DNA of 63,999 nt, the filler included, from Basidiobolus ranarum (lineage: Eukaryota): NCBI GenBank assembly GCA_040143965.1. It is 22 parts of 22 records of this genome, joined end to end, with 100 filler letters (N's around TTAATTAATTAA, not from the genome) between each part and the next. Parts side by side here need not be neighbours in the genome. Positions count along the whole stretch, not along the records: positions 2,931 to 5,759 come from JASJQH010009816.1; positions 5,860 to 8,688 come from JASJQH010009817.1; positions 8,789 to 11,616 come from JASJQH010009818.1; positions 11,717 to 14,543 come from JASJQH010009819.1; 18 more parts are not named here. One strand, 5' to 3'. Positions 2,931-61,248 of this stretch are shown one piece after another (the stretch's first letter is position 1; the number at the start of each line of letters is the position of its first letter). Under the pieces are notes generated by a model, which was not told where the DNA came from, did no database searches, and was given only the letters and a program-made list of their open reading frames with translations. The translations under genes were made by a program, and so were the position numbers.

Positions 2931-3087
2931 TTTCCATACGCTTTGTATGGCCACAGAACCATCCTCCACATAGGTCATGTAAGTCTCGTTTATCTACTGT
3001 TGATGCCGTGTAGCCTTGTCCCATAGGTAGACTTTGAGCAGTCAAGGTAAACAGAGTAATGGCGACGTATAAGCTGGTGAACTTCAT
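2931..3087 (-). CDS. Secreted Kex2-processed repeat peptide precursor, paralog A (3' truncated by contig end)
   Basis: MKFTSLYVAITLFTLTAQS-LPMGQGYTASTVDKR-DLHDLCGGWFCGHT-KR-ME...: signal peptide and dibasic-flanked core. Confidence 0.9.
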
Positions 3088-3180
3088 TATTGCAGTGGAA
3101 AGATAGTCAAGTTTGTTGTAGTGTCGATGATATAGAAGAAGTGACGAGATCTGAGGATGTATGTTCTGTTTGTTGGCTAC

Positions 3181-3260
3181 TTATACGTTTTAGTGATTTT
3201 CTGAGAATGTATAGTAAGCGTTAGAGCGATCATTAATTCTGAGTACCTATTTTCCTAGAA
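3181..3260 (-). promoter_or_regulatory. Paralog A promoter: TATA box (~3181) and TTCCTAGAA motif (3252-3260)
   Basis: Same two-element arrangement upstream of every family member. Confidence 0.6.
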
Positions 3261-3764
3261 CACTTCGTGATTCATATGGATTACATTGCAACTTAGTACA
3301 TTTAAACCAGATTAAAACCTGATTATGTTAAGACATTTATCGGTTGGTGGATAGTTCAATGTTCACGCGTAGGATCTCACCTCTACACGGTAGATATGAG
3401 CAGGAATGTATCTGACAATATTCAAATATTTGGTCAGTTTGTGCTTTGTTGGATATTAAACCGGGATACTAGTACTTTTCTGTGCGCGATTGTAATTCGA
3501 CAAGCTTGCAACTTTAGCTTGTCATAGATATTTTTTGAACAATCCCAAAGCAGTTCAATATGATTTGAAGACAAAAGCAGCAACAGTATTCTTCCATAAG
3601 TAATGTAATAATATATTTAATTACATACAGACGCCTCCAGCACTGATAGCGGTTACATTATTAAATTTCAGTTATGTGACAAAAAAGGATTTAAATTTTC
3701 TACTATAATAGCTTGGTTAAGAACATGGTACAAGGCGACTGACTCCAGGTCAGTGTAGCTATGG

Positions 3765-3896
3765 CTATAGTACTAGTTGAATTGTAGAGCAATCTCTTTT
3801 GTCTCCTGCATCAACTTTGAAACCCTGCTCCACTGGTAAACTTTGTACGGCCAGAGTAAGAGCAGTAGAAACGGTAAATAAGCCGATGAGCCTCAT
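3765..3896 (-). pseudogene. Core-less paralog D of the peptide precursor family (43 aa)
   Basis: MRLIGLFTVSTALTLAVQSLPVEQGFKVDAGDKRDCSTIQLVL*: homologous signal and pro region up to DKRD, then the core is missing; family TATA at 3931-3940 and motif at 4007-4016 and 4135-4143. Confidence 0.8.
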
Positions 3897-4474
3897 TAAA
3901 GTATTTGAAGATTAGCATCCAGGCACCTAACTACTTATATGGTTTGGTGGCCCATAACTTAGCTACATAGCATATCACAGGTGAATATTTGATTCTGAGC
4001 CGTATCAACCTAGAATATTATGTTATACAATTCTGAAGAATATTTCGATGGCGTCAAAAGATATATCTCAAACCTTTTGTCATTTGACTGCTTATTTGAC
4101 TTAGTGAGTATCACTGGGAATAAGATATGTGGGATTCCTAGAATATTATGATATAAATCGATATTTCTGATTACTTTAGGATAAAACAAGTTGACCGAGA
4201 TTACTCCATCCAGATGGTATTTCCATTTGCTATGATCTTGAGATTTTCAACTAGAAACAAAGTAGAAATATTACAAGTAACATCAGATAATTTATTAAGT
4301 ACTGGAATTATTTGAGAGTCAAAAAAAACTATTCAAAATTGACTACAACAAGGGACAAAATGGCAAGAAATAACGGACAGTGAAATAACGATTAGTTAAT
4401 AGGTCTTGTTCACATAACTTCCCAACAATAGGCTAGTTTTTGTGAAAGTATTGTGGTGTATTATGGTGTAGAGT

Positions 4475-4861
4475 TTAACTGCTAGAATGATGGGTAATTT
4501 CTTTCATGCTGGATCTCAGATAGGTACGATGAAAGGCACTTCTTTTCCTAGTATGTCCGCAGAACCATCTACCGCATAAGTCATGTAGATCTCTCTTGTC
4601 GCTTGTGGTGGGTGATTGTTCACGTACTATTTGCTTTTCAATTCTAGTAAGAAGTTTTGGGTCAGTGTTAGTAGTTGGTGATTCGACTGGGCTCTCTGGA
4701 GTTATTTCATCACGTTTCGTATGGCCACAGAACCATCTGCCGCACAGGTCATGTAGATCTCTCTTGTCTCCTGCCAATTCTGCGGTGCCTTGACCCATAG
4801 GTAGACTTTGAGCAGCCATAGTGAAGACAGAAGACGCAACTAACATGGTAGCGAATCTCAT
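4475..4861 (-). CDS. Secreted Kex2-processed repeat peptide precursor, paralog B (128 aa, two cores)
   Basis: MRFATMLVASSVFTMAAQS-LP...DKR-DLHDLCGRWFCGHT-KR-spacer-DKR-DLHDLCGRWFCGHT-RKR-21-aa tail; ATG at 4861 chosen by homology. Confidence 0.93.
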   Translation of the reverse strand: MRFATMLVASSVFTMAAQSLPMGQGTAELAGDKRDLHDLCGRWFCGHTKRDEITPESPVESPTTNTDPKLLTRIEKQIVREQSPTTSDKRDLHDLCGRWFCGHTRKRSAFHRTYLRSSMKEITHHSSS

Positions 4862-4936
4862 GACGATATTGAAAGATGCTTGAGGTTGATATGATAACAG
4901 CACTATCCGATAAATCTTACACTGTCACCTAGCTAC

Positions 4937-5015
4937 TTATATAGTTTAGCGATCTTTTCTCTTATGTTGGAGGCAAAAATCAGGTTCATGTTGCGGAGTT
5001 GATTGATTCCCAGAA
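4937..5015 (-). promoter_or_regulatory. Paralog B promoter: TATA (4937-4943) and TTCCCAGAA motif (5007-5015)
   Basis: Spacing of about 70 bp, as in paralogs A, D and F. Confidence 0.6.
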
Positions 5016-5595
5016 CGCGTATCAGGTGACACACATTGGCGTAATATGAATTAAAGTATTCTGCCTGCTATATTTCTTTACCAAAGTTGTAATATTAAAC
5101 TTAATTGAAAATCATTCATGTACGCTGACTTATGGTTTTCATCTTCCCGTATTGGAACACGCTTCTGAATGCTAATCCCAGTTTCAAAATTGTGCTGTTT
5201 GCCAAGCAACATATTAGAATGAGATTCTCTACCCTCATTACTTTTATATGATATTGAAGCAGCATAGCCCAAGAAAATTCAAGCAAGTGACAAATGTCTG
5301 CTTAGTTTATAGCAATAAGAAATTTATTACATTATTCAATTGAACACAAAAAAAGAGTTCGAAAATAATTCAGTTTGATTGACACCAAGGCAAGAAACAG
5401 AGGACTCCGGGTCAGTGAATAAAATACTCGAAACTATTACGATATGGTTAATATCAAGACAAAAAATAACTGACTTTAGGTCGGGGAAGGATTGAGTACA
5501 GGTCATGTGCATGCTTAAATATCCAACAAAAACCGGTGATAGGGCTGCTAACTAAAAATTATATTAAATAAAACTCTAGCTCTGTTGTGCTGAGT

Positions 5596-5759
5596 TTAAT
5601 TGCTGAAAGAAGCTGCACTTTTGCTTATTGAAGACCGGAGGTGATCTCTTAAGGAAACACTTCGTTTCTTAGTGTGCCCACAGAACCACCTACCACACAA
5701 GTCATGTAGATCTCGCTTGTCACCGACGGTAGGTGGTTGTGTATGCACTGTTTCCTCCA
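5596..5759 (-). CDS. Peptide precursor paralog C, 3' half (5' end off contig)
   Basis: ...EETVHTQPPTVGDKR-DLHDLCGRWFCGHT-KKR-SVSLRDHLRSSISKSAASFSN*; not in the ORF track. Confidence 0.9.
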
Positions 5760-5877
5760 NNNNNNNNNNNNNNNNNNNNNNNNNNNNNNNNNNNNNNNNN
5801 NNNTTAATTAATTAANNNNNNNNNNNNNNNNNNNNNNNNNNNNNNNNNNNNNNNNNNNNTCTAAATGGACATTCCTC

Positions 5878-6729
5878 ATGGATCCAAAAGCAACTACTAG
5901 CTTTCCTATCACCACCCTAGAGGCTATATTTGAGAAATACTGTGGCTCATATACTCCAATACCTACCAGAAAGCAGCTAGTCAATTTGTTTTGTTACTAC
6001 AAAAACTATTGTCCAATCAGATTTCAGTGCACTATTAATGGTAGCAAAAGTGGGAGAAGCTTCCTTACCAGGCTTCAAGTAAGTGGGAATTATCTAGCTT
6101 CTGTGATGAAAGATGTTGATCATGCCTGGGACAAAAGATTTAGAGACTCTAATTTCCTTCCATTTCCTGGAGTATTTCCCAAAAGAGTTCATATCAGAAG
6201 TATTCTTGACACATATCAAGTAAGAATTAACAGGCCCAAAAGCAACCAAAAGCTATTCTATTCTGGCAAGTACAAAGCCCACTGTGTAAAGTTCCAGGCT
6301 TTGACAGATTTGGAAGGAAACATCATTTGGTTTAGTGGGCCACATCCAGGGAGACACCATGACAAAAGGCTTTGGGTTGAGAGGCATGCACCATTTGTAA
6401 GATATGAGAAGACTATGGCTGATTTGGCATATGTTGGGGAAGAATGCAGAAGGCTAGGATGTGTCACTGCTAACAAGAGGCCCAGAGGAGGGATACTCAC
6501 AGAGAGGCAAAAGCTTTATAATGACATTTTTTCCCATTTTAGAGCAAGAGTAGAACATAGCTTTGGTTTCCTAAAGAGATATAGCATTGTAGCAGGAAAG
6601 TATAGAGGAAAATCATTTTGTGGGCCTCAATCAAAGTTAGGCAAAGTAGTCAAAATCTTGATTAATTCTCAATACATCCATACTCAAAGATATCCATTGA
6701 GAGCTCTAGACTTAAGACACTATGAATAA
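5878..6729 (+). mobile_element. PIF/Harbinger-ISL2EU/IS5-like DDE transposase (DDE_Tnp_4-type), uninterrupted ORF
   Basis: Motifs ILDT...RINRP, FYSGKYKAHCVKFQ, GPHPGRHHD, MADLAY, RARVEHSFGFLK; frame open to the contig start. Confidence 0.85.
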
Positions 6730-7049
6730 AGCTTTCATTATCTTTTGAATGTGCAATAATGTCTAAAAGTACTTTTCTTAAACATACCACATAAGTAAAA
6801 TAAACTGTTTCCAAAATGGTAAATAACATCGTGCCGGATAGTGCCCAATCATGCCAATTTGTGCTGGCACACTTTTTAGCTGGCCTGATCTGGCTCAATA
6901 AAATGGAACAAGTCTATAGGTAAAAATTATGAAATTCCTATTCAGGCCATGACAAGCAATAATGCCAGAATATTACAATTAATGTAGCATTTGGAAGCAA
7001 CAAGTCAACAGTTAGAGAGGAACTCAACAATGATACAAGGCCTATTAAC

Positions 7050-7770
7050 AAGCCAGGCAACCTTCCAAGATCTCTGGTTTAATCAACTCTATCAAAAAAT
7101 TGGATCTATTTCATTCAGATTTGTGTAGACCTATGCAAAATTCATTTTTAGGTGAAAAAATATATGCAATCAGATTTATTGATGATTTTACAAGATATAT
7201 TTGAGTCTACTATATGAAAAGAAAATATGCAGGACTCTCAATTTTAAGGGATTTGAAAACACTTGTGAAGACTGAAACAGGAACTAAAATTATGAAAACA
7301 TACGCTGATGATGGAGGAGAATGTACTTCAACATTATTTAAGTACTTTTGTAAAATTGATGGAATTGAGCAAGAAACTACAGCCCCCTATTCCGCTCAAC
7401 AAAGTGGAGTTGCTGAAAGTGCTAACAGTACTATATTAGAAATGGCAAGATCTATGATAAATGCACATAATTTATCTCATAATCTTTGGGCAAAATCTGT
7501 TGCTAAAGCTTTATATCCAAGGAATAGCAGTTCTAGTAGAAGTCTGTCTAACCCTAGACCATATGAAGCTTGGTTTGGAGTTAAACATGATGCAAAGCAT
7601 TTAAGGGTCTTTGGATGTATTGCTTATGTTAAGGTTATGGCCAAAGATTGGTCTATATTGGATCCAAAAAGTAAGAAATGCATATTTCTGGGTTAATGTA
7701 CTCAAACTAAGGCCTACAGACTCCATGTCACCTAAATTTGCTACTTAAAAAGTCTGGGGATATGATGTTA
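7050..7770 (+). mobile_element. Ty1/copia integrase relic
   Basis: DDGGE, TAPYSAQQSGVAE, HLRVFGCIAY, DPKSKKCIFLG motifs with stops. Confidence 0.85.
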
Positions 7771-8199
7771 ATGAAATTGAAAAATATTCACCCAAAATGA
7801 CTGCACATTGTGAGGATAATTGATATCTGCCTAATCCAATCATTCAACCTATTTCAAAATCAAATGAGTTAAGAAAATAGCATACTTGTAGACCCTTCAA
7901 CTAAACTTTTGCTTACTGAAGTGCCTAATTCAATGCCATATATTATAGTACCTCTGTCCTAAGCCAGGAGATAAAATCAGATCCTAACAGATATGAGGAT
8001 TATTATTATAGGAAATGCATCACAATTTTAATCCATTTTAGATTGTCTGTTTACTGGACTTGTTCCATTGTGCCAGGATTTATTGGACCTTAAATCTATA
8101 CATTAGAGTAAATTGAACTGAAATTGATCATGCCAGAGAGTGCTGGATAGTGTCAAAATAAGCCACATAAATTTTAGAATACTTTGTCCAATTTGAAAT

Positions 8200-8688
8200 A
8201 CATAGCTTAAATTGGCACTATCATGGAGAACAAGTACACTTACCAGCATAAAATCTTCAAGTTATATTTGATTTTAATCCTTTTTTTCAGTTTCAGGAGT
8301 GAAATTTCAAGATCTCACAAAATAGTTGCACATGATTGGCTACAATCTCAGTGAAATAAGGATCAATGCATGTGCAAAAAATGTAACTCAAGTTTTACAT
8401 TTTTACCACTTGAATGAGAGTTTGTCAACTTCAATATCCCTAGTTTTTTGATACAATCTCCTGAATATTCTTATCAAGCACTTTGTAGTCAAGGTTTAGC
8501 TTATGCTCAACACAAGTTTGTAGCAATATCTCCCTCAAAGCCCACCATTGTGTTAACATTGCTGAATCATCATTCTTCCAGCTATCTGGTGGATACCCTG
8601 CAATATGGTGCCACTCTGTATTAAGTTCTTCCCAGATATCTGCAGAGTCAACACCAGACTGAATATCTAGTTAAATGTTCTTCTACTT
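8200..8688. repeat. Dispersed TE-derived repeat (also at about 22260-22730 and inverted at 26342-26500)
   Basis: Shared blocks such as gtgaaatttcaagatct...aaatagttgca and gctatctggtggataccctg. Confidence 0.7.
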
Positions 8689-8788
8689 NNNNNNNNNNNN
8701 NNNNNNNNNNNNNNNNNNNNNNNNNNNNNNNNTTAATTAATTAANNNNNNNNNNNNNNNNNNNNNNNNNNNNNNNNNNNNNNNNNNNN

Positions 8789-11616
8789 TAATACTAATCA
8801 GGCAAAAATCTTTTCAAAATTCCATTGGAATATATGCAAATCCATTACTTCCAGTCTTTGCATTTGAGTAAACACCTAGATGAGTGGATATTGATGGGAG
8901 TCCTAATAAGATATGATGGTATCTTGATGTTTTTAAGCATTTTCCCAATTGATTCAAACTTCAATCCTATCTCAAATGGCTCATTCATATTGAATTTTCC
9001 ACTATATAGCTGAGTGAGTAGTGTTGGTATGCTGTTGAATAGTAAGTGCATAATACCTAATGGGAAGCTCTTGCTCCAGCTGATCCCCTTTAGCAAAATA
9101 ATCTTAGGCTTGAGGCTGATACCAAGTTTGATGTTAGACTGACTATTTAGTGAGCTGATATCAGTGATTGTGTTGGAATCTGACTGGGCTCTTGATGGAA
9201 AAATCATGGAGTTTAGTTTTGTATTTGGATAGTTGTAATGAATATGCCTCATAGAGGAAACTCCATGGATTTGACAAAATCTACAGCAAGATAGCGCATT
9301 TTGCCTGCAAAAACCTCCACATTTACTGATGGAAGGAGTGTCAACAATACATACAATGATATTATCTTTAAAAAAATACTCACCCATCTGAACCCTATTA
9401 GATAACCATTCAAATTCCACAATCAAAGGCTCCAAAAAGCTGTCTATAAGCACTGATAATTTAGGTCAAGATACAATGGATAGTATCAAAATGTTATGAC
9501 TCTTGTACCATTTAGAAGGACGAACGTTTAAGTTAATTAAAATTCTTGGCCAGCAAGCCTTTCCAATGGTATATTTCTTTAGCAAGAAACCATCCAGAGC
9601 TAATGCAAATGCATGATCATATGTGTTCTCAAAGAACCCATGCCTTTTGAGATTCTGGTAATGATATCTACCAAGTATATTGGTAATTCCATCAGCTTTA
9701 TGGTAAGTACTTTGGTATTGAATCAATGATTTATGTTTTGTTGATTTCATCAATACTTCAAAGGATTAAAATGCAGCAATAATTGCTAACAGTTCCTTGT
9801 TATAGATGTGATAGTTGATTTCTGCTGCCAAGAACTTTCTTGAGTGTTAAGACAACAGTGTGCAGTTGGTTATCATCACCTCCTAGCAAAAATAAAATTA
9901 ATTGGATCCCAGTGGGATCCACCTTTCTGGATTGCAACACCATCAGAGAACTATCACAATATATTTAGCTTACATTCTGCCAGAGATTTTGATGGTATTT
10001 ATACATGTAAAAATAAAGATCCTTTTCTTTGGCATGCAATATATGATTTCTGTCAGTATTTGCAAAAATCTAATACTTGAATGCCAAATTACTGGGTTTA
10101 CTGCAGTAGGAATTCAAATTAATATGCCTGCCTTGATTTAGATATTTTAGGCTTTGTATTCCTTCCATAATAATAATCATAAAATACAAGAATCTTGTTG
10201 TATTTAGTCTCTACATTTGCACATACTTGACTGATCAGACATAACTCAGCACATGAATATGCTTTACCAGCAAACTAATGGTGAAAAAATTGCTATACAT
10301 CTGAAATTTTCAATAGCACAGACACTTTCAAATGGCTGACTCTTGTTACCATTTACAATGGGAATGAGCTCTTTGATTTTGGCAAATTTTGGTAAAGAAT
10401 TTAGCCAAAATATCTCTGACTTACAGTCAACATATGTCCTGCCACAAGTAGATTTGTCATTGCTTGAATAGATTACCCCATGGCTAAAACAATAATACTG
10501 TATATCTTGATCTATCTCACCAGGAAGTGTGTATTGCAGCTTTCCTAGAAATACTGTCAGATTATAACTAAAGCAAATTAGTCCAAATTACAGAGGTACT
10601 TACTCAGTATCCATGGATTGGGTTTTTTTGCTTTAATTGTGCTCAAATAATGCAAAAACCCATGAAGACATTGAAAAAAGCCCTTTGGTGGAAGATTAAT
10701 ATACTCTGGAGTCTCCTTAACCCATTGCATTACATCCATCACCCTGACAAAAATAAAATCAACTTGATCTAGATTGGATCCACCCTCCAAAAGAGCAAAA
10801 CCATCAGAGAACCATCACAATATTGGTGGCTTGCATTCTGCCAGGGATTTTGATGGTATAATGGTGGCTTCTTGACAGTATTTTGATGGTATTCATACAT
10901 GTTTAAACATTGAACCTCAAAATTGGCGTGTTATTCAATATCTGGCAATTTCTGCAAAAATATAATTTTTGAATGGCAAATTACTGGGTTTAATGTTATA
11001 GGAATTTGAATCAATATGAATGCCTTTATTAAGTTATTTTAGGCTTTGTGTTCCAGTGATAATGAGAATTAAAAAATACAAGAATTTTGTTGTGTTTAGT
11101 CCCCATATATGCACATACTTCACTGACTACACATAACTCAACAAAATCAATATGCTTTACCAGCAAACTAATGGTGGAAAAATTGCTAAACATCTGATAT
11201 TTTGAATAGCACTGACACTTGGCAAAGAGCTGACTCTTGTTACCATTCACAATGAAAATAAGCTCTTGGATTTTGGCAAATTTCCATAAAGAATTCAGCC
11301 AATATATACCTATCTTGCCATCAACAAATTTCCTGCCACAAGTAGATGTGCCATTGCTTGAATAGATCACCCCATGGCTAAAACAATAATAATACATATC
11401 TTGATCAGTCTCACCAAGAAGTCTGCCATGCAGCTTTCCTAAAAATACCATCAGATTATTACACAAACAAATTAGTCCAAATCAAAGAGGTACTTACTCA
11501 GTGTCCATTGATTGGGCTTTGTTGCTGTTATTGTGCTCAGACAAGGCAAAAACACATGAGCACATTGAAACGAGCCCTTTGTTGGAAGGTCCATACTCTC
11601 TGGAGTCTCCTGAACC
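8789..11616 (-). mobile_element. Decayed CACTA/En-Spm-like (Transposase_21-type) element fragments, with a gypsy RNase H scrap near 9760-9850
   Basis: FALALDGF, CWPxILINLN, HNILILSI, DSFLEPLIVEF motifs; downstream part present twice; HSRKFLAAEINY-type RNase H piece. Confidence 0.75.
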
Positions 11617-11730
11617 NNNNNNNNNNNNNNNNNNNNNNNNNNNNNNNNNNNNNNNNNNNNTTAATTAATTAANNNNNNNNNNNNNNNNNNNNNNNNNNNN
11701 NNNNNNNNNNNNNNNNATATCTAATCTCCT

Positions 11731-11809
11731 TTATAGTATAGCTATCATTCCGTGAAGGTGATGAAAGCAACTAGATGATTTGTGTTTCTCACTTGGTTGA
11801 TTCCTAGAA
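11731..11809 (-). promoter_or_regulatory. Orphan family promoter (TATA ~11731 and TTCCTAGAA 11801-11809) for a paralog beyond the contig's left end
   Basis: Same motifs and about 70-bp spacing as in the precursor promoters, with no ORF left on the contig. Confidence 0.55.
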
Positions 11810-12377
11810 TACAAATTTGGTGGCACCACAGAACAGGTAACTCTACAAAATCAATTGTAATCTGCTAATCCAAGTTATTGACCATACAACTATCTTCACT
11901 ATTTGACATGTTCTAATCAACACGCGCTTAGGATCGAAATGGTATAGTGAATATAAGTATGAGAGACGACAGTTCAAGTCAAATTGCCAAATACTAAGGT
12001 ATTACACTTCGCATACTTTGCTCAAGGTTGAACATGATCTTTGTTGAGGAATGATATAAGGTCATAGAAGAGTCAGAGTATAGTAGTATTTGCTATAGTT
12101 TTAGCAGATATAGCCTTAAGGTTTACTTACAATATATCGTTAAATCAATTAGTTTCCAACAAAATACATCTATATGAAGCAAGTACCAAATGATCTCTTG
12201 ATGTACAACATACTGGTATTTATTATATTAATAAACTGGATACGAAAGGAAAAAGTTCAAAATTATGTCAGTTTGGTTAGTGAAAAAGTATCAAAAAGCT
12301 AACTCCGATTTGTGGAAGATTGCTAGTGCATTAATGGTGATGATGATACGTTTGGGTATTACTTTGAAGTACTGAAA

Positions 12378-12764
12378 TCAACTACTGAAATGATCTATAT
12401 TCATTTTTATTGAGGATCGGAGATGATTGCGTAGGGTAATGCTTCGTTTCTTTGTATGCCCACACATCCATCTTCCACACAAGTCGTGTAGATCTCGTTT
12501 GTCACTGATGGTTGGTGATTGCTCATTAATTGCTTGCTCATCAACTTTAGTAGGAGTAGTTTGCCTTGAGACACTAATTAGAGTTTCACTTTGGCCTACA
12601 AAAGAGATTTCCGCACGCCTGGTGTGACCACAGAACCACCTGCCACATAAGTCACGAAGGTCTCTTTTATCTTCCGTTGCAACCTTGAGATCTAGATCCA
12701 AAGGTAGACCTTGTATTGTTGAAGTGAGAACAGTAGACAGTAAAAATATACCGGTCAATTTCAT
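12378..12764 (-). CDS. Secreted Kex2-processed repeat peptide precursor, paralog E (128 aa)
   Basis: MKLTGIFLLSTVLTSTIQG-LP...DKR-DLRDLCGRWFCGHT-RR...DKR-DLHDLCGRWMCGHT-KKR-tail; TATA 12831-12840; motif at 12884-12892 and 13023-13031. Confidence 0.93.
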   Translation of the reverse strand: MKLTGIFLLSTVLTSTIQGLPLDLDLKVATEDKRDLRDLCGRWFCGHTRRAEISFVGQSETLISVSRQTTPTKVDEQAINEQSPTISDKRDLHDLCGRWMCGHTKKRSITLRNHLRSSIKMNIDHFSS

Positions 12765-13420
12765 AGTTGTATCAGAAATAGAATTAGTCGATAGAACAGT
12801 TTGAATAACACCATCTCCTCATTCATTCATTTTTATAGTTCAATGGCCAAGGCACTGACAAGTTGTATGAAGAAGTTGGTTTATTCCTAGAATGGTAGGT
12901 TATACAACTAATCTGAATGTCACTAACTCTACTAAATATTTCAATAATCATGAGAAGCTCTTTTGTTAAATGTTTCTTGAGAAAAAATACGATGAGACAG
13001 TGTCATTGATTCAGTTGCTTGATTCCTAGAATATCCAGTGATACAAAGTGATATCTCTGACCATTTTAAGATAAAGCAGGTTCACTTTGAAAATGTCCCG
13101 GTTGCTCTATCCAGATATATTGTCGATTATCATGATATGCATAGAACTCAGAAATACTAGTGATATTTTGGATTTGTTCTGGCTAGAGATCACTAGATTA
13201 AGACCAATGAACGAAAATTAAGGAGAAAAGATCAAAATTTATTTTAATAACTTGTTTGTTGACAAAAATGTTGGTAACAGCTGATACCAGGGGCGTGGAA
13301 ATATGCTTGCTGTACTGCTTACTGAGATATAGCCTTATTCCCAAAAGACTAGAAAGGTAATAGTAGGTAGCAGGCTGCTTTATGGTGTAATGCTTAACTG
13401 TTGAAATTGTTGACAGGTTC

Positions 13421-13774
13421 TTATTTTGAGAATCTGAGATTGCTACGGAGAGTAACACTTCTTTTTCTGGTATGTCCGCAGAACCATCTGCCACACAGGT
13501 CATGTAGATCCCGCTTGTTACTTGTGGCGGTAAGCGATTGCTCAATGACCGTTCTCTTTTCAACCTTAGTTTGTTCCGAATCGACGATTGGGGATTCATC
13601 TGTACCCACTATAGAGGCTTCTTCACGTTTGGTATGACCACAGAACCACCTGCCACATAAATCATGCAAATCCCTCTTGTCTCCAGCTAGTAATTTGGTA
13701 TCCTGACCAAAAGGTAGGCTTTGAGCAGTCATAGTAAGGATAGTAAAGATGATGGCTAAAGATGCAAATTTCAT
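13421..13774 (-). CDS. Secreted Kex2-processed repeat peptide precursor, paralog F (117 aa)
   Basis: MKFASLAIIFTILTMTAQS-LP...DKR-DLHDLCGRWFCGHT-KR...NKR-DLHDLCGRWFCGHT-RKR-tail; ATG 13774; TATA 13851-13860; TTCGCAGAA 13923-13931. Confidence 0.93.
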   Translation of the reverse strand: MKFASLAIIFTILTMTAQSLPFGQDTKLLAGDKRDLHDLCGRWFCGHTKREEASIVGTDESPIVDSEQTKVEKRTVIEQSLTATSNKRDLHDLCGRWFCGHTRKRSVTLRSNLRFSK

Positions 13775-14643
13775 GGTTTTTGTTGAAAGATAATTGAGTT
13801 TGCTATTGTAGCAGAGTAATGTTATGTATTTCATCCCGTCGTTTGACTGCTTATATAGTTTGATCATCATATCTCCAATGCAAGAGTGGTGAGAAGTTAG
13901 TTCTTCGTTCTCAGTAGCTTCATTCGCAGAATATAAGCTAGGTAACACGAGCTGAAAATAGATAAATCAGGTTGCCTTCCTCACAACACGCCGATCTTAA
14001 TATGTCATTCTGTAAGATAGAGACAAGATGGAAAGATGGGATTTTTATTGGCCGAGGGAATGGGTGATGTCAATTGAAGATCAAATAGCCAAATGCTTCA
14101 TGTACTCAAGATACAGTATACTAAAATCTGCCTACAATTGAGTGAATTTTCTGGTGGTATCAAGAGGATCTCAGAAAGCAGACAACTATCATTTCATTTC
14201 TTACCGGATATCGGTTCAAGCGATAAATCCACTGTTGTATATTTGAGTTTAGAGACGCGATATATTTTATTACTAGCTCGATATTTCACGCTCATGGTAG
14301 ATGAGTATACTGTTAACGGGCTGTATTTTTATTAGGACTAGATAGCTTATTACGTAGATTAATTATTCAGAAGTTAAGATAGTAAGCATAGATTACACTA
14401 CAACAGATTTGTTGACAAAATGGTAAGAGATGACTGACTCTTGGAACGCGAAAAATCATTTGGCGCGTATTAGCTAAAGTGTAAGGAAAATCCACAGGAC
14501 TAACCTCAAAAACAAAGTTAACCATAGATAAAAGCTTAGACAANNNNNNNNNNNNNNNNNNNNNNNNNNNNNNNNNNNNNNNNNNNNTTAATTAATTAAN
14601 NNNNNNNNNNNNNNNNNNNNNNNNNNNNNNNNNNNNNNNNNNN

Positions 14644-35932: not shown

Positions 35933-36595
35933 TGAGGAATTGGTGGTATTCAATTATTGATTTATTGAGTAGAAAGTTGACAAATATAGTTTTGTAAAGA
36001 TGTAAATAAACCAACTTGTATAATGTCTTAAGCAAGGTCCCAGGAACATGTGTGCAAAGTTTGGGGCTTCTAGCACAAGTTTGAAAGATCTATATATCTG
36101 AGAACTTTTAAGTTGGTAATAATATTCTAAGTAAATTCTGATTGAGAGTAATGGATAATATCTTAGTGAATTATAAGATAACTAAGTACTAAGTTATATA
36201 TGACTATATAGGTGCTTAGGCAATGCTAATTTCAACAATATCCCTCAACTAAATAGTTATACAAGCAAATCCTAATAAAGGTCTAAATTTGTCAAATTTC
36301 TGTCTAGCTAATGGTTTGGTTAATATATCAGCAATCATATCTTCTGTAGAACAATAAGTTAAGTCAATAAACTTATTCTCTATAGTCTCTCTAATGAAGT
36401 GATGCTTAATATCCATATGTTTGCTTCTATTATGAAATGTGGGATTTTTAGCTAATCTGATACAACTTTTATTATCTTGAAATATTGTAGCAGGTGAATT
36501 TTGGGAATAACCCAAATCTGCAAACAGTTTTCATAACCATATGGCTTCTTTTGTTACTTCACAGGCAGCTATGTATTTAGCTTCTGTTGTTGAAA
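35933..36595 (-). mobile_element. Copia 3' end: RNase H (36249-36595), PPT and LTR (35933-36236)
   Basis: DNKSCIRLAKNPTFHNRSKHMDIKHHFIRE, MIADILTKPL. Confidence 0.88.
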
Positions 36596-37925
36596 AAGAT
36601 GCTAGCTATGCCTTAGTGTTTGTTGATGATGTTATCATTTTCTCAACTGATAGAGCTGATCATGCAACCCATGTTACTGATATTATCAACCGTCTTACTT
36701 ATGCTGGACTTATCCTGAATGCTGAAAAATGCAGCTTTGCTCACCTTAAAATCAACCTACTTGGTTTTATTGTTACTCCTACAGGCCACCAATTAGATCC
36801 TTTCAAGTTAGTCAACATTAAGGATTGGCCTAAGCCTACTACCGCTAAACAACATCAACACTACCTTGGAGTCTTCAACTATTTCAGGGAACATATTCCA
36901 CTTTTCTCAACTCTAAGTGTTCCACTTGATTCCTTATAACATAACCAAAATCTACACTCAGTTTGGACCAAAGCACATGATCAAACCTTTGATTCACTGT
37001 GCACAATGCTTCCCCAAGCTCCCACTCTATCATATCCTGCCTTTTTCAAGCCTTTTTTGTTGCTACTGATGCATCTCATGTTGGATTAGGGACAGTTCTT
37101 TGCCAGGATGAAGACCAAAATCTACCTCATCTGGACCATTCATGACCAGTGATGATGGAGATCACTACCTCTTTGTGATAGTAGATGTTTGTACATGCTT
37201 TGTTTTTCTCTAAGCTCTACCAGACAAATTTGCTACTAACATTGGCCAAGCATTATTCAAGCTATTCTTCCTCTTTGGATTTCCTGAAATCATTCAATCT
37301 GATAATGGAACTGAGTTTGTTAACCAAGTCATCAAAGAACTCTGCTGTAACTCTGCCATTGTTCACAGACTAATCACTCCCTATCATCCTAAAGCTAATG
37401 GACTTGCAGAAAGACATTTTCAAACCTCTGTGAATATAATCCAAAAATCCATCAAAGGAGTCAAGAACAATTGGGACAAGTCAATCCCAATGATTCAATA
37501 TGCTATCAACACCAAGATTGCTGCACTCCATGGATACACTCCATTCTCACTTATGTTTGGAAGAATGTTCAACCAACTATGGAACTATCAAGATGTTCTA
37601 CTCAAACCAATCAACACTGAAGACTTAGACAAATGCCTTCAATTTCTAACAGATATAGTCTACCCTGGAATCTACTCAAGAAGCAAAAATAGTCAACAGA
37701 AGATGATATACAAGCACACTTCTAGGCACAAGACCACTAGTTTTCCTGAAGGTTCTTTTGTCAAGACTTTAGATCCCATTCGCTAATCCAAACTTGATCC
37801 CAAGTATGAAGTTCCATTCAAGATTATCAGAAGAACCACTGGAGGATCTTATGTACTTCAAGACAACACTGGAGCCTTACTACCCAAGAACTTTCCACCA
37901 TCTTCCCTTAAGCTTATTTCACAAG
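36596..37925 (+). mobile_element. Ty3/gypsy pol relic (RT, RNase H, integrase)
   Basis: FVDDVIIFS, LNAEKCSF, ATDASHVGLG, QSDNGTEF, YHPKANGLAER. Confidence 0.88.
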
Positions 37926-58436: not shown

Positions 58437-61248
58437 ATTAGAGGAATTGTTGGTTTTCACTTGTTGATTTATTGAGTAGAGAGTTAACTATGATAGTTTT
58501 GTCAAGACATAAACAAACTAATATGTAAAAAGTGTTACAAAAGGACCTACAAGCATGTGTTCAGAGTTTAGGGCTTCTAGCACAAGTTTGAAAAATCTAT
58601 ATATCTGTGAGCTCCTAAGTTGGTAAATATATTAAAAGAAAATTCCAATTGAGAATAATGGATTATGTCTTAGTGAAATATAAGATGAATAAGTACTAAG
58701 CTATATATGACTATATAGGTGCCTAGGCAATGCTACTTTCAACACTCTCCCTTAACAAAACAGTCATGTAAACTAATCCTAATAAAGATCTAAATTTCCC
58801 TAATTTCTGTATAGCTAATGGTTTGTTTAATATATCAGCAACCATGTCTTTTATACAGCATGTTGAAACTAACATTGCCCAAGCACCTATATAGTCATTT
58901 ATAGCTTAGTACTTAGTTATTTTAAAACACACCAAGATATTATCCATTATTCTCAAATGGAATTTATTTTGAATATTTTTACCAACTTAGTTCTCAGAAA
59001 TATAAATTTTTCAAACTGGTGCTAGAAACCCTAAACACTGCACACATGATCTTAGGACCCTCCTTAACATATTCTACATGTAAGCTTGCCTACATCTTGA
59101 CAAAGCTATGAATGTCAACTTTCTACTCAAGAGATCAACAAGTCAAACCATCAATTCCTCTAATTCTCCAAACCACCTCCAACAGGCTCCTAAATACTTT
59201 AACAGATTATGAGCCCCAAGCTTGCACTGTCTGTAGTGCCTACTTCTCAAATTCATGGAACTTCTCACTCTTCTGAAAAATTGGATGGAATCAATCATCA
59301 AGTTTGGAAAATGAAAATGAAAATGGAGCTGCAAGAAAAAGAAATTTGGGAAACTGTTATCAGAGAAGAAAACAATATAAAACTATCTGAAATCAAAGTT
59401 TTACTCCAGGCTAAAAAGAACAAAGGGCCTTTAACACAATTTGTCTTAATGTTAAAGACAAATTGCTAATTCAATGTTCCAAAACTAAAACTCTCAAGAA
59501 GGTATGGAAAGCCTTGGAAGACAACTACCAAACAAGTTCTGCTGCTAAAATGATATTTCTAAGAAGACAATTCTTTAACTTAAAGATAAAGCCAGGAGAT
59601 GACATTAATCACTATATAGTAGAGTCACTATTTTAGTGAATGAACTAGAGTGCATTGGAGTACCTACTACAGATCAGATATCATAGTTACAGTCCTGAAT
59701 AGCCTGCCACACAAGTTTCAGAGCCTAGTAATGGCTCCACAATCAAAAATTGAAAATTAGGCCTTACATTTTGTATTTGGCAGACCTCTGGATGAAGATT
59801 TAAATAAATCTGGATCCACCCAAAAAAATGAACAAAATGCTTTAGTAGGCTATAGGAAACCTTTCTATAAAGGTCAAAAGCACTTTAAGAACAAAAGTAA
59901 CACAATCTGTGACTACAATAAAAGAACTGGCCATTTAAGCACAGATTGCTTCAAAAGAATTGTAAAAGAAGAAAAAAACCGAATCTGGAAATGTGGTTAC
60001 AATAGAAGATCACTTGCTCATATTAGCTCTATATATGACTACCAACAAGGATTCTCAGACATGGTACATTGATTCTTGAGCCTCCCAACATTTCACAAAT
60101 GAAAAGCAGTGGTTTGTGGATTATGAAGTAATCCCAATTAGAAAGGTTTTCATGAGAGATGACCACACATTGGATGCTATTGGAATGAGAGCAATTCAAG
60201 TCAATTTAGCTGGAGCTTCTGAAGAGAAAATATATACTTTTAAGGATGTACTACATGTTCCAGATATTGCCAAGAATTTAATATCTGTATGCAAGGCCAC
60301 CTCAGAAGGGCTAAAATTCAATTTTGATAAGCCAAGATGCATCATCACTGATCAAATTAGGAACTATTTAGCTTTGGGAGAAAAGGATCAGAACACATAA
60401 AAGATCACATATAATCCAAGTGGCTTATGTGTAAATCTAAGGAACTCCAATCAAGAAACTATTAAATTATGGTGTAAGATATTTGGTCCCATTGAATTTG
60501 ATTAATTTAGCAAAATGATCAAAAATTGCTTAATTTCAGGATTTCAAATTAACCCCCCAAACAAAATGGAAATTTGTGAGGTTTGCATATATGGAAAACA
60601 AGACAGGCAACCATTCAAGAGCTCTGGTTTAAGCAAATCTATCAAAAGATTGGATCTAATTCATACAAATATGTGCAGACCTATGCAAAATTCATCTTTA
60701 GGTGGTAAAAGATATTTGATCACATTTATTGATGGTTATAAACAATACATTTGTGTCTACTTTATTGAAAGAAAAGAAGAAGTACTCTCTATCTTTGAAG
60801 ATTTTAAAACACTGGTGGAGACTGAAACTGGAACTAAAATGAAAAAAATACACACTGATAATGGTGGAGAATATACTTTAACATTATTTAAGCACTTTTG
60901 CATGTTGCAGATCAACACCTCAGAAATAAGAATTTGGAAAAAGAATCTGAGGAAGTGGCTCTTTTTGGAGCTGAAAAACATAGCTTTGGCAAGTTCAAAG
61001 GTTACAGAAGAAGGAAACCAGTGTTATGCTATAGTTGTAACAAACCAGGACTGTTGAAGTTTATTGTCCTTATCATATTTGTTATCTCTATCTTTATACA
61101 CCTAACTATTTCATATAACACATATAAGTTAGTTAATATTACTTAGTCAAATATCACTTAACTGAAAATTGGAACATATATTATATATATATGTGAATAA
61201 TGTGAGAATTAGCAATTCCATATTGGAAATTTCAAACTTGTCCAGATT
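58437..61248 (+). mobile_element. Copia relics: inverted LTR 58437-58744; LTR 58861-59204, PBS, gag and integrase; further LTR from 61052
   Basis: TGTTGAAA...TTTAACA LTR, PBS GATTATGAGCCC, CEVCIYGKQ, TDNGGEY. Confidence 0.85.

Follow-up and report, generated by a model that had tools for sequence, protein, structure and literature searches.

Gene Copies and Cores

The DNA considered here, called the window in the following, is a 63,999-base stretch from Basidiobolus ranarum, and the subject is a family of genes within it that encode small secreted precursors, in which a 14-residue core with two cysteines recurs between dibasic sites. The window consists of 22 pieces, each of about 2.8–2.9 kb, and of 21 spacers of the form N44-TTAATTAATTAA-N44. 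It represents short contigs of a fragmented assembly with artificial joins, and the order of the pieces and the distances between them, including those between the two contigs that carry the family, are therefore meaningless. The pieces apparently stand in descending order of length, and the spacers give stops in six frames. The G+C content is ca 32–40% across the whole window.

The family copies are confined to two pieces, at 2931–5759 and 11717–14543. All copies are on the minus strand and intronless; three are complete (B, E and F), two are truncated at a contig end (A and C), and one is a relic (D), which gives six units within only 5.7 kb of family contigs. A six-frame scan of the whole window yields eight C-x4-C 14-mer cores in total, with zero cores of the form x5-C-x4-C-x3 in the other 20 pieces. 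The copies and their cores are the following:

2931–3087, minus strand: copy A, 5′ part, with signal peptide, pro-region, DKR, G-type core and KR; cut by the contig end
2944–2985, minus strand: core A1, DLHDLCGGWFCGHT
3765–3896, minus strand: copy D, relic; 43-residue open reading frame (ORF) that comprises signal peptide, pro-region and DKRD and then stops; coreless
4475–4861, minus strand: copy B, complete, 128 residues (P0001), two cores, uninterrupted ORF
4718–4759, minus strand: core B1, DLHDLCGRWFCGHT
4550–4591, minus strand: core B2, DLHDLCGRWFCGHT
5596–5759, minus strand: copy C, 3′ part, with spacer end, DKR, one core, KKR, tail and stop; cut by the contig end
5671–5712, minus strand: core C2, DLHDLCGRWFCGHT
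12378–12764, minus strand: copy E, complete, 128 residues (P0002), two variant cores, uninterrupted ORF
12621–12662, minus strand: core E1, DLRDLCGRWFCGHT
12453–12494, minus strand: core E2, DLHDLCGRWMCGHT
13421–13774, minus strand: copy F, complete, 117 residues (P0003), two cores, uninterrupted ORF
13631–13672, minus strand: core F1, DLHDLCGRWFCGHT
13469–13510, minus strand: core F2, DLHDLCGRWFCGHT
11730–11809, minus strand: TTCTAGGAA (11801–11809) and TATAAA (11730–11735), probable promoter of a further copy past the contig end at 11717

The original prediction had given the same coordinates and the same shared strand, and all of these are confirmed. Its placement of the family on two contigs is also correct, the DNA between them holding transposon fragments (DDE_Tnp_4 and retroviral-type integrase SH3). 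It had further counted at least six paralogs. All six loci indeed exist, but the number is overstated, as D is a relic and A and C are fragments at assembly breaks. The eight cores found are of the type proposed earlier; core A has a G where the proposed consensus has an R.

Copy A is identical to B. ranarum K7432_012431 at 49 of 52 positions, with the fast-evolving signal and pro-regions included. It is the window counterpart of a G-type subfamily (CGGWFC) formed by K7432_012431 (P0013) and K7432_014235 (P0020), in which a third partial core, GLDRFC(G/E)GWFC, is present at the C-terminus with no KR before it; in the window the contig ends before any position of a third core. Copy D retains the promoter, the signal peptide and the pro-region, but its DNA likeness to B stops directly after DKRD, and it is for this reason taken as a degenerate relic and not as a working paralog. 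For F, the start ATG at 13774 is preferred, because the longer ORF from 13870 would include the TATA box. Finally, the upstream motif and TATA sequence next to the contig end at 11717 hint at a seventh unit beyond it.

Relatives and Distribution

Among 5.8 billion proteins, a word-indexed search found 21, three of them from the window itself. The remaining 18 are B. ranarum 'hypothetical proteins' that are 49–73% identical to B. Members with consecutive locus tags are found at K7432_013232–013236 (five, on a 6667-bp contig) and K7432_012427–012432 (six, on a 7692-bp contig), and further at K7432_000096–097 and K7432_015415–416. Consecutive tags on such short contigs mean that the B. ranarum family is tandemly arrayed as well.

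Against 1.84 billion cluster representatives, a HMMER profile search (E ≤ 0.001) gave 7 matches, all from Basidiobolus according to exact look-up or source name. These are three representatives of B. ranarum members, three proteins of B. meristosporus CBS 931.73, plus a distant B. ranarum protein, K7432_009182. The B. meristosporus members are ORX98274, ORX73532 and ORX98271, together with ORX98273, which clusters with ORX98271, and their core is DLHDFCGGWFCGHV. ORX98271, ORX98273 and ORX98274 lie on one scaffold of 164 kb. Two B. meristosporus proteins, of 49 and 55 residues, were recovered by the profile search alone, and for shorter relatives of 30–69 residues the word-index search gave zero candidates. 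We have also scanned the metagenome contigs of the Joint Genome Institute with the family alignment, which resulted in 82 pattern matches, 0 of them confirmed by tblastn. In the sequence collections covered, the family is so far found only in Basidiobolus, every relative coming from this genus. The host is an early-diverging fungus, the case in which the original prediction had called a peptide pheromone notable.

Two of the B. meristosporus models, ORX98274 (P0022) and ORX98273 (P0026), with 107 and 130 residues, are apparent fusions of two tandem single-core units. They are read in this way because a segment resembling a signal peptide recurs internally, and the public annotation of the fused locus is then probably wrong.

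The distant match belongs to a sister family, consisting of K7432_009182 (P0025), K7432_000260 (P0027) and B. meristosporus K493DRAFT_89725 (P0028). K7432_009182 has three cores of the form FWNMRYYCGGWVCxH and matches the family profile with an E-value of 1.4e-4. The sister precursors resemble the main family in having a signal peptide and KR-preceded cores with C-G-G-W-V-C-x-H, one to three per protein including a C-terminal copy. They differ in the N-terminal half of the core, FWNMRYY, such that only C-x-G-x-x-C-x-H is shared with the main family, and also in being longer (169–209 residues) and in having degenerate upstream copies.

Precursor Architecture and Core Conservation

The core statistics given below refer to 46 KR-preceded cores in 25 collected proteins. 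A precursor begins with the signal peptide and the pro-region; then follow KR, a core and a dibasic site, a spacer, a second KR with its core and dibasic site, and the tail. Most members have two KR-bounded cores, and the B. meristosporus units have one. This layout, which had been proposed for the window copies, is kept across the 25 proteins: an xKR triplet precedes all 46 cores (42 DKR, 2 NKR, 1 KKR and 1 YKR), and a dibasic pair follows 44 of them (25 KR, 10 KK, 8 RK and 1 RR).

The core itself reads exactly DLHDLCGRWFCGHT in 30 of the 46 cases. L2, C6, G7, G12 and H13 are invariant (46/46), and D1, H3, W9 and C11 are each present in 45 cores. Directly after KR, the core starts with D-L-H in 45 cases and with N-L-H in one. 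The main variation is limited to three positions, namely R8/G8 (35 R, 10 G and 1 N), L5/F5 and T14/V14. The monoisotopic mass of the 14-mer is computed to be 1656.693 Da in the oxidised form and 1658.708 Da in the reduced form, with a net charge of −1.1 at pH 7 and a pI of 6.0.

Signal peptides were called in the 25 proteins by a heuristic, hand-made N-terminal pattern rule, which 21 of them match. Among the latter, the segment is exactly 19 residues long in 18 cases, ending before L-P or Y-P, and in 19 a K or R occurs among residues 1–5. An uncharged stretch of 12–16 residues, with a mean Kyte-Doolittle value of 1.5–2.9, is common to all 21, as are small or aliphatic residues at −3 (A/V/I/T) and −1 (S/G). 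Of the four proteins that the rule does not recognise, two are truncated models and two, from B. meristosporus, have a D-C-Y-P junction.

Selection on the Cores

The comparison of the eight window cores (28 pairs) gives proportions of synonymous and nonsynonymous differences, pS and pN, of 0.87 and 0.032, respectively. The synonymous sites are near saturation, which means that the paralogs are old. It also means that selection on the amino acids, and not gene conversion, has kept the peptide the same; gene conversion can be ruled out as the source of the identical cores, as the pS between them is 0.87. The recurrence of one 14-mer with differing DNA at most synonymous sites is far beyond chance.

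To obtain regional pN/pS values, B, E and F were aligned by codon. For the two cores they are 0.03 and 0.05, and when the cleavage sites are included they are 0.04 and 0.07. Beyond the cores, the values are 0.68 for the signal peptide, 0.88 for the pro-region, 0.59 for the spacer and 0.45 for the tail. The constrained unit is exactly the cleavage site, the 14-mer and the next cleavage site, and strong purifying selection is found there only. As a family of secreted pro-peptide precursors, these genes are real, under strong selection and much amplified.

Upstream Elements

The units also have short sequence elements in common upstream of the coding region. These are located as follows:

3177–3185, minus strand: TATAAGTAG box, upstream of A
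3252–3260, minus strand: TTCTAGGAA motif, upstream of A
3931–3939, minus strand: TATAAGTAG box, upstream of D
4135–4143, minus strand: TTCTAGGAA motif, upstream of D
4933–4941, minus strand: TATAAGTAG box, upstream of B
5007–5015, minus strand: TTCTGGGAA motif, upstream of B
12832–12837: TATAAA, upstream of E
12884–13031, minus strand: two TTCTAGGAA motifs (12884–12892 and 13023–13031), upstream of E
13847–13855, minus strand: TATAAGCAG box, upstream of F

In each unit, TATAAG(T/C)AG or TATAAA is found ca 70–95 bases 5′ of the ATG, with a distance of ca 35–40 in D. The motif TTC(T)(A/G)GGAA lies 65–75 bases further upstream in A, B and the 11730–11809 unit; elsewhere the offsets are different, with two motifs at ca 50 and ca 190 bases in E and one at ca 200 in D. 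With 9% of the window's length, the two family contigs contain six of the seven TTCYRGGAA matches in the window, all six on the gene strand, and four of the six TATAAGYAG matches. The sole TTCTAGGAA match beyond the family contigs is at 10542–10550, inside an internally duplicated contig (8789–11616, see below).

The remaining upstream sequence of the paralogs aligns poorly, which makes it probable that function has preserved the boxes and would point to co-regulation. Their presence is also partly due to the common descent of the duplicated units. The TTC-N3-GAA motif is possibly the binding site of a common regulator. It was considered as a canonical heat-shock element (TTCnnnGAA), but this was rejected, because the half-sites are separated by three bases, while the spacing in heat-shock elements is two. 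A partial ORF with a DNA-binding domain of the heat-shock factor type is present on another contig and is unconnected to the family motif.

Searches for a Known Family or Fold

Pfam searches with the three complete copies (P0001–P0003, E ≤ 0.1) gave sub-threshold matches only. DUF7586 (16.5–19.4 bits against a cut-off of 27) and RING-type models were rejected as effects of the Cys/His/Trp composition. A phmmer search of the PDB with the core and its flanks found no significant relative, the best match being a zinc finger with an E-value of 0.54. CGRW-CGH also matched a knob peptide of a bovine antibody (E 1.5), which was attributed to chance.

AlphaFold2, run on a 21-row alignment, gives no confident fold, with a mean predicted local distance difference test score (pLDDT) of 49.6 and a predicted template modelling score of 0.23; helices appear only at residues 3–18, 35–44 and 91–127. 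The ESM Atlas model has a pLDDT of 0.49. In the Atlas, the best feature score is 0.86 and the template modelling (TM) scores of the structure matches are all ≤0.37, values that provide leads only. Low confidence of this kind in the models fits a precursor rather than a folded small protein.

The motif CGRWFCGH is absent from the literature full text searched. Among the listed publications on Basidiobolus together with Kex2, pheromone or genome, and on peptide signals in Zoopagomycota, judged partly by title and abstract, none describes the family. The paper of Tabima et al. 2020, which treats the secondary metabolism of Basidiobolus, has 0 mentions of RiPPs (ribosomal peptides modified after translation). 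A match to an already characterised peptide, which would have removed the novelty of the family, is found neither in Pfam nor in the PDB, the profile search or the motif search of the literature.

Proposed Processing and Role

It is now possible to formulate a scheme for the maturation of the precursors. The 19-residue signal peptide would direct the chain into the endoplasmic reticulum (ER) and be cleaved off before the conserved L-P. The two Cys of each core would then pair and close a six-residue disulfide ring, C-G-(R/G)-W-F-C (C6–C11); the partners are placed within one core, because the B. meristosporus unit has one core with two Cys. In the Golgi, a kexin (Kex2-type) would cut after each conserved K-R, and a Kex1-type carboxypeptidase would trim the trailing K/R. 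Each precursor would in this way deliver two copies of the 14-mer DLHDLCGRWFCGHT or close variants of it, apparently one in the case of the B. meristosporus precursors, and the variable pro-region, spacer and tail would be discarded. The individual steps, that is, signal peptidase cleavage, disulfide formation in the ER, kexin cutting after KR and Kex1 trimming, are established fungal secretory biology. As judged from the sequences, the original prediction described the precursors rightly, and there is good support for its reading of the biosynthesis.

Regarding the role of the peptide, we consider it probable that these Kex2/Kex1-type, prohormone-like precursors release a disulfide-looped 14-mer that is most likely a specific extracellular ligand. 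A ligand role, either autocrine/developmental or pheromone-like, is thought most likely because the 14 positions are near-fixed across paralogs and species and because the peptide is slightly acidic. An acidic peptide with a frozen sequence is more in keeping with a specific ligand than with a membrane-active antimicrobial; classical antimicrobial peptides are cationic, unlike this one.

A number of points weigh against this assignment. The presence of kexin and Kex1 is assumed from general fungal biology. Two of the 46 cores have no C-terminal dibasic site, reading KIG and DIL instead, and the second core of P0016, a degenerate B. ranarum core, has lost the W and the second Cys. Tailoring enzymes may be involved as well, since the two family contigs, on which no gene for one is seen, are each only 2.8 kb long. 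At least 18 genes for one peptide exceed what the known fungal pheromone systems need and would rather suit a bulk product for defence or metal binding. Moreover, Ste2-class receptors are confined to Ascomycota in the account of a review, which leaves no cognate receptor class in view.

A more specific version of the ligand proposal, which is conceivable but which we hold only tentatively, is that the 14-mer is an endogenous, ribosomally made peptide signal, that is, a pheromone or a quorum/developmental autoinducer for the formation of zygospores or conidia, acting via a non-Ste2 receptor, for example of an animal-like G-protein-coupled receptor class. To our knowledge, only trisporoid lipids have been characterised as mating signals in zygomycete-grade fungi. 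If true, the peptide would be the first Kex2-made signal outside Dikarya. In a bolder variant of this idea, the ring would mimic a peptide hormone of vertebrates or insects and act on the gut host.

Another option considered, which we judge slightly less probable still, retains the same precursor and processing but takes the 14-mer as a bulk defensive or niche-shaping product directed at gut or dung bacteria, competing fungi, insects or the herptile host rather than at the fungus that makes it. The gene numbers fit well here, as the at least 18 B. ranarum genes and the six units on 5.7 kb suggest selection for dose, and the upstream motifs common to the paralogs suggest joint induction. The ring contains a basic residue, a Trp and an aromatic residue, as do several animal hormone rings, a lead given by the original prediction. 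Basidiobolus lives in herptile guts amid a dense microbiota and has a rich secondary metabolism, as described in Tabima 2020. The properties of the peptide, however, speak against such a product: with a charge of −1.1 it is neither cationic nor amphipathic, and no solved peptide or toxin is similar (PDB best E 0.54). Furthermore, defence peptides usually diversify, whereas here 30 of 46 cores are identical and the pN/pS is 0.03–0.05.

We have also considered the 14-mer as a metal binder. A peptide with an X-X-His N-terminus binds Cu(II)/Ni(II) (the amino-terminal Cu(II)- and Ni(II)-binding, or ATCUN, rule), and the N-terminal D-L-H would provide such a site; alternatively, H3, C6, C11 and H13 could form a His2Cys2 site if the Cys are reduced. 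The residues in question are present in 45 (H3), 46 (H13), 46 (C6) and 45 (C11) of the 46 cores, stoichiometric binding would account for the high gene dose, and both the sub-threshold Pfam RING/zinc-finger matches (E 0.005–0.035) and the PDB zinc finger (E 0.54) point in the same direction. These matches are, however, not significant, and nothing special can be read from the conserved His and Cys, since all 14 positions are about equally conserved. In the sister family, the N-terminus is F-W-N, with no His at position 3, though C-x-G-x-x-C-x-H is kept, and the Cys of secreted peptides are normally oxidised. Metal binding is regarded as quite improbable.

[quoted passage not shown] Conservation of the core only, with variable spacers, is a signature of RiPP precursors, and Kex2-processed precursors feed ustiloxin-type pathways (Umemura 2020, PMC7329392). 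Against this, there is no enzyme gene on the two (short) family contigs, and the 6.7-kb and 7.7-kb contigs of B. ranarum carry consecutive-tag family members (five and six, respectively). In Table 1 of Umemura 2020 (PMC7329392), a DUF3328 neighbour is recorded for 0 of 185 Kex2-processed repeat proteins (KEPs) of Zoopagomycota.

Finally, that the proteins stay uncut, as intact small secreted Cys-containing proteins, or that they are non-functional annotation noise, is the least credible of the options: D is a dead copy and one B. ranarum core is degenerate, but no fold is predicted (pLDDT 49.6), the constraint is on the cores and dibasic sites alone (pN/pS 0.45–0.88 in the rest), and the synonymous saturation with an intact peptide rules out unselected DNA.

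Surrounding DNA

The other pieces of the window contain a number of further features:

5878–6729, 7214–7696, 36511–36939, 37214–37786 and 60506–61057, plus strand: transposon fragments (Pfam/ORFs)
10358–10471 and 11252–11365, plus strand: duplicated short ORFs
10578–10739 and 11472–11594, minus strand: duplicated short ORFs

The transposon fragments comprise a DDE_Tnp_4 (PIF/Harbinger-type) transposase ORF of 283 residues, pieces of retrotransposon integrase and a piece of reverse transcriptase, which fits short contigs broken at repeats. The duplicated ORFs belong to an internal duplication in the contig at 8789–11616, where two pairs of similar short ORFs lie ca 900 bases apart.

Implications

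Kex2-processed peptides are already known to be plentiful in Basidiobolus, but we know of no such peptide in Zoopagomycota with an assigned function. The predicted product of the present family is sharply defined and synthesisable, with 14 residues, one disulfide and a mass of 1656.69 Da, and the purifying selection and gene amplification argue that the peptide is made and is important to the fungus. If it is indeed a signal, peptide communication in early-diverging fungi would become open to experiment, and if it is active on microbes or on the host, it would bear on the hold that Basidiobolus has on the gut niche. The family also reveals a blind spot of the two KEP surveys compared below, namely families that amplify by gene copy rather than by repeat.

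Comparison with Known Systems

Several known systems have features in common with the family, and the original prediction had named most of them. The dikaritins, among them ustiloxin, phomopsin and asperipin, are similar in that the precursor is secreted and contains repeated cores bounded by Kex2 sites (Umemura 2020, PMC7329392). Their cores are Tyr-based and not Cys-based, and their maturation needs nearby DUF3328/UstYa oxidases, none of which is seen on the two 2.8-kb family contigs. A dikaritin-type assignment is not supported: no DUF3328 gene is seen on these two short contigs, and Umemura 2020, in Table 1, has a DUF3328 neighbour for none of the 185 Zoopagomycota KEPs.

The alpha-type pheromones share the secreted precursor, the Kex2 sites and unmodified products of 10–14 residues. 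Some ascomycete alpha pheromones also have two conserved Cys and a Trp, for example in the motifs RFCHLPGQGCSK and QSWGGCGGRGTPCW (Le Marquer 2019, PMC6339444), but the spacing in these quoted motifs is C-x6-C and C-x7-C, compared to C-x4-C here, and the number of genes is here far larger than in known pheromone systems. In the Atlas feature search, an MF_alpha precursor cluster was ranked third with a score of 0.82, which is below the tool's bar and a lead only. No Pfam match to MF_alpha or MF_alpha_N was obtained for P0001–P0003 at E ≤ 0.1, and no X-A/X-P dipeptides of the Ste13 type follow KR in any of the 46 cores. Taken together with the restriction of Ste2-class receptors to Ascomycota stated in the review, these results speak against membership in the alpha-factor type, which had been named earlier for its similar layout. 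The same review places Ste3-class receptors in most early-diverging fungi, and rhodopsin, glutamate and frizzled classes mainly there.

The likeness to urotensin II and vasopressin/oxytocin, which had also been pointed out, consists of dibasic processing of the kexin family, a six-residue Cys-to-Cys ring, and Trp, aromatic and basic residues in this ring. The order of the ring residues is different, and no sequence relationship is detectable, with a best PDB E-value of 0.54 and profile matches only from Basidiobolus. The likeness is one of geometry, limited to ring size and residue types, and no sequence relative was found in the PDB.

The closest parallel in mechanism is provided by the KEPs. 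These are densest in Zoopagomycota, and the richest strain is B. meristosporus CBS 931.73, with 43 KEPs (Umemura 2020, PMC7329392). Like the present precursors, they have an ER signal peptide and short conserved cores between KR/KK/RR sites with variable spacers. The Basidiobolus type S-3 described by Umemura (PMC7329392) is rich in Y and D, whereas the core found here is without Y. The surveys of Le Marquer et al. 2019 (PMC6339444) and Umemura 2020 (PMC7329392) both apply a threshold of at least 3 repeats, and with two cores per precursor, and one in the B. meristosporus unit, the present family falls below this number and would be missed by both. As far as the main texts of the surveys show, it appears to be undescribed, sharing the mechanism of the KEPs but failing one operational criterion, and the amplification is here achieved by the number of genes, at least 18, and not by the number of repeats.

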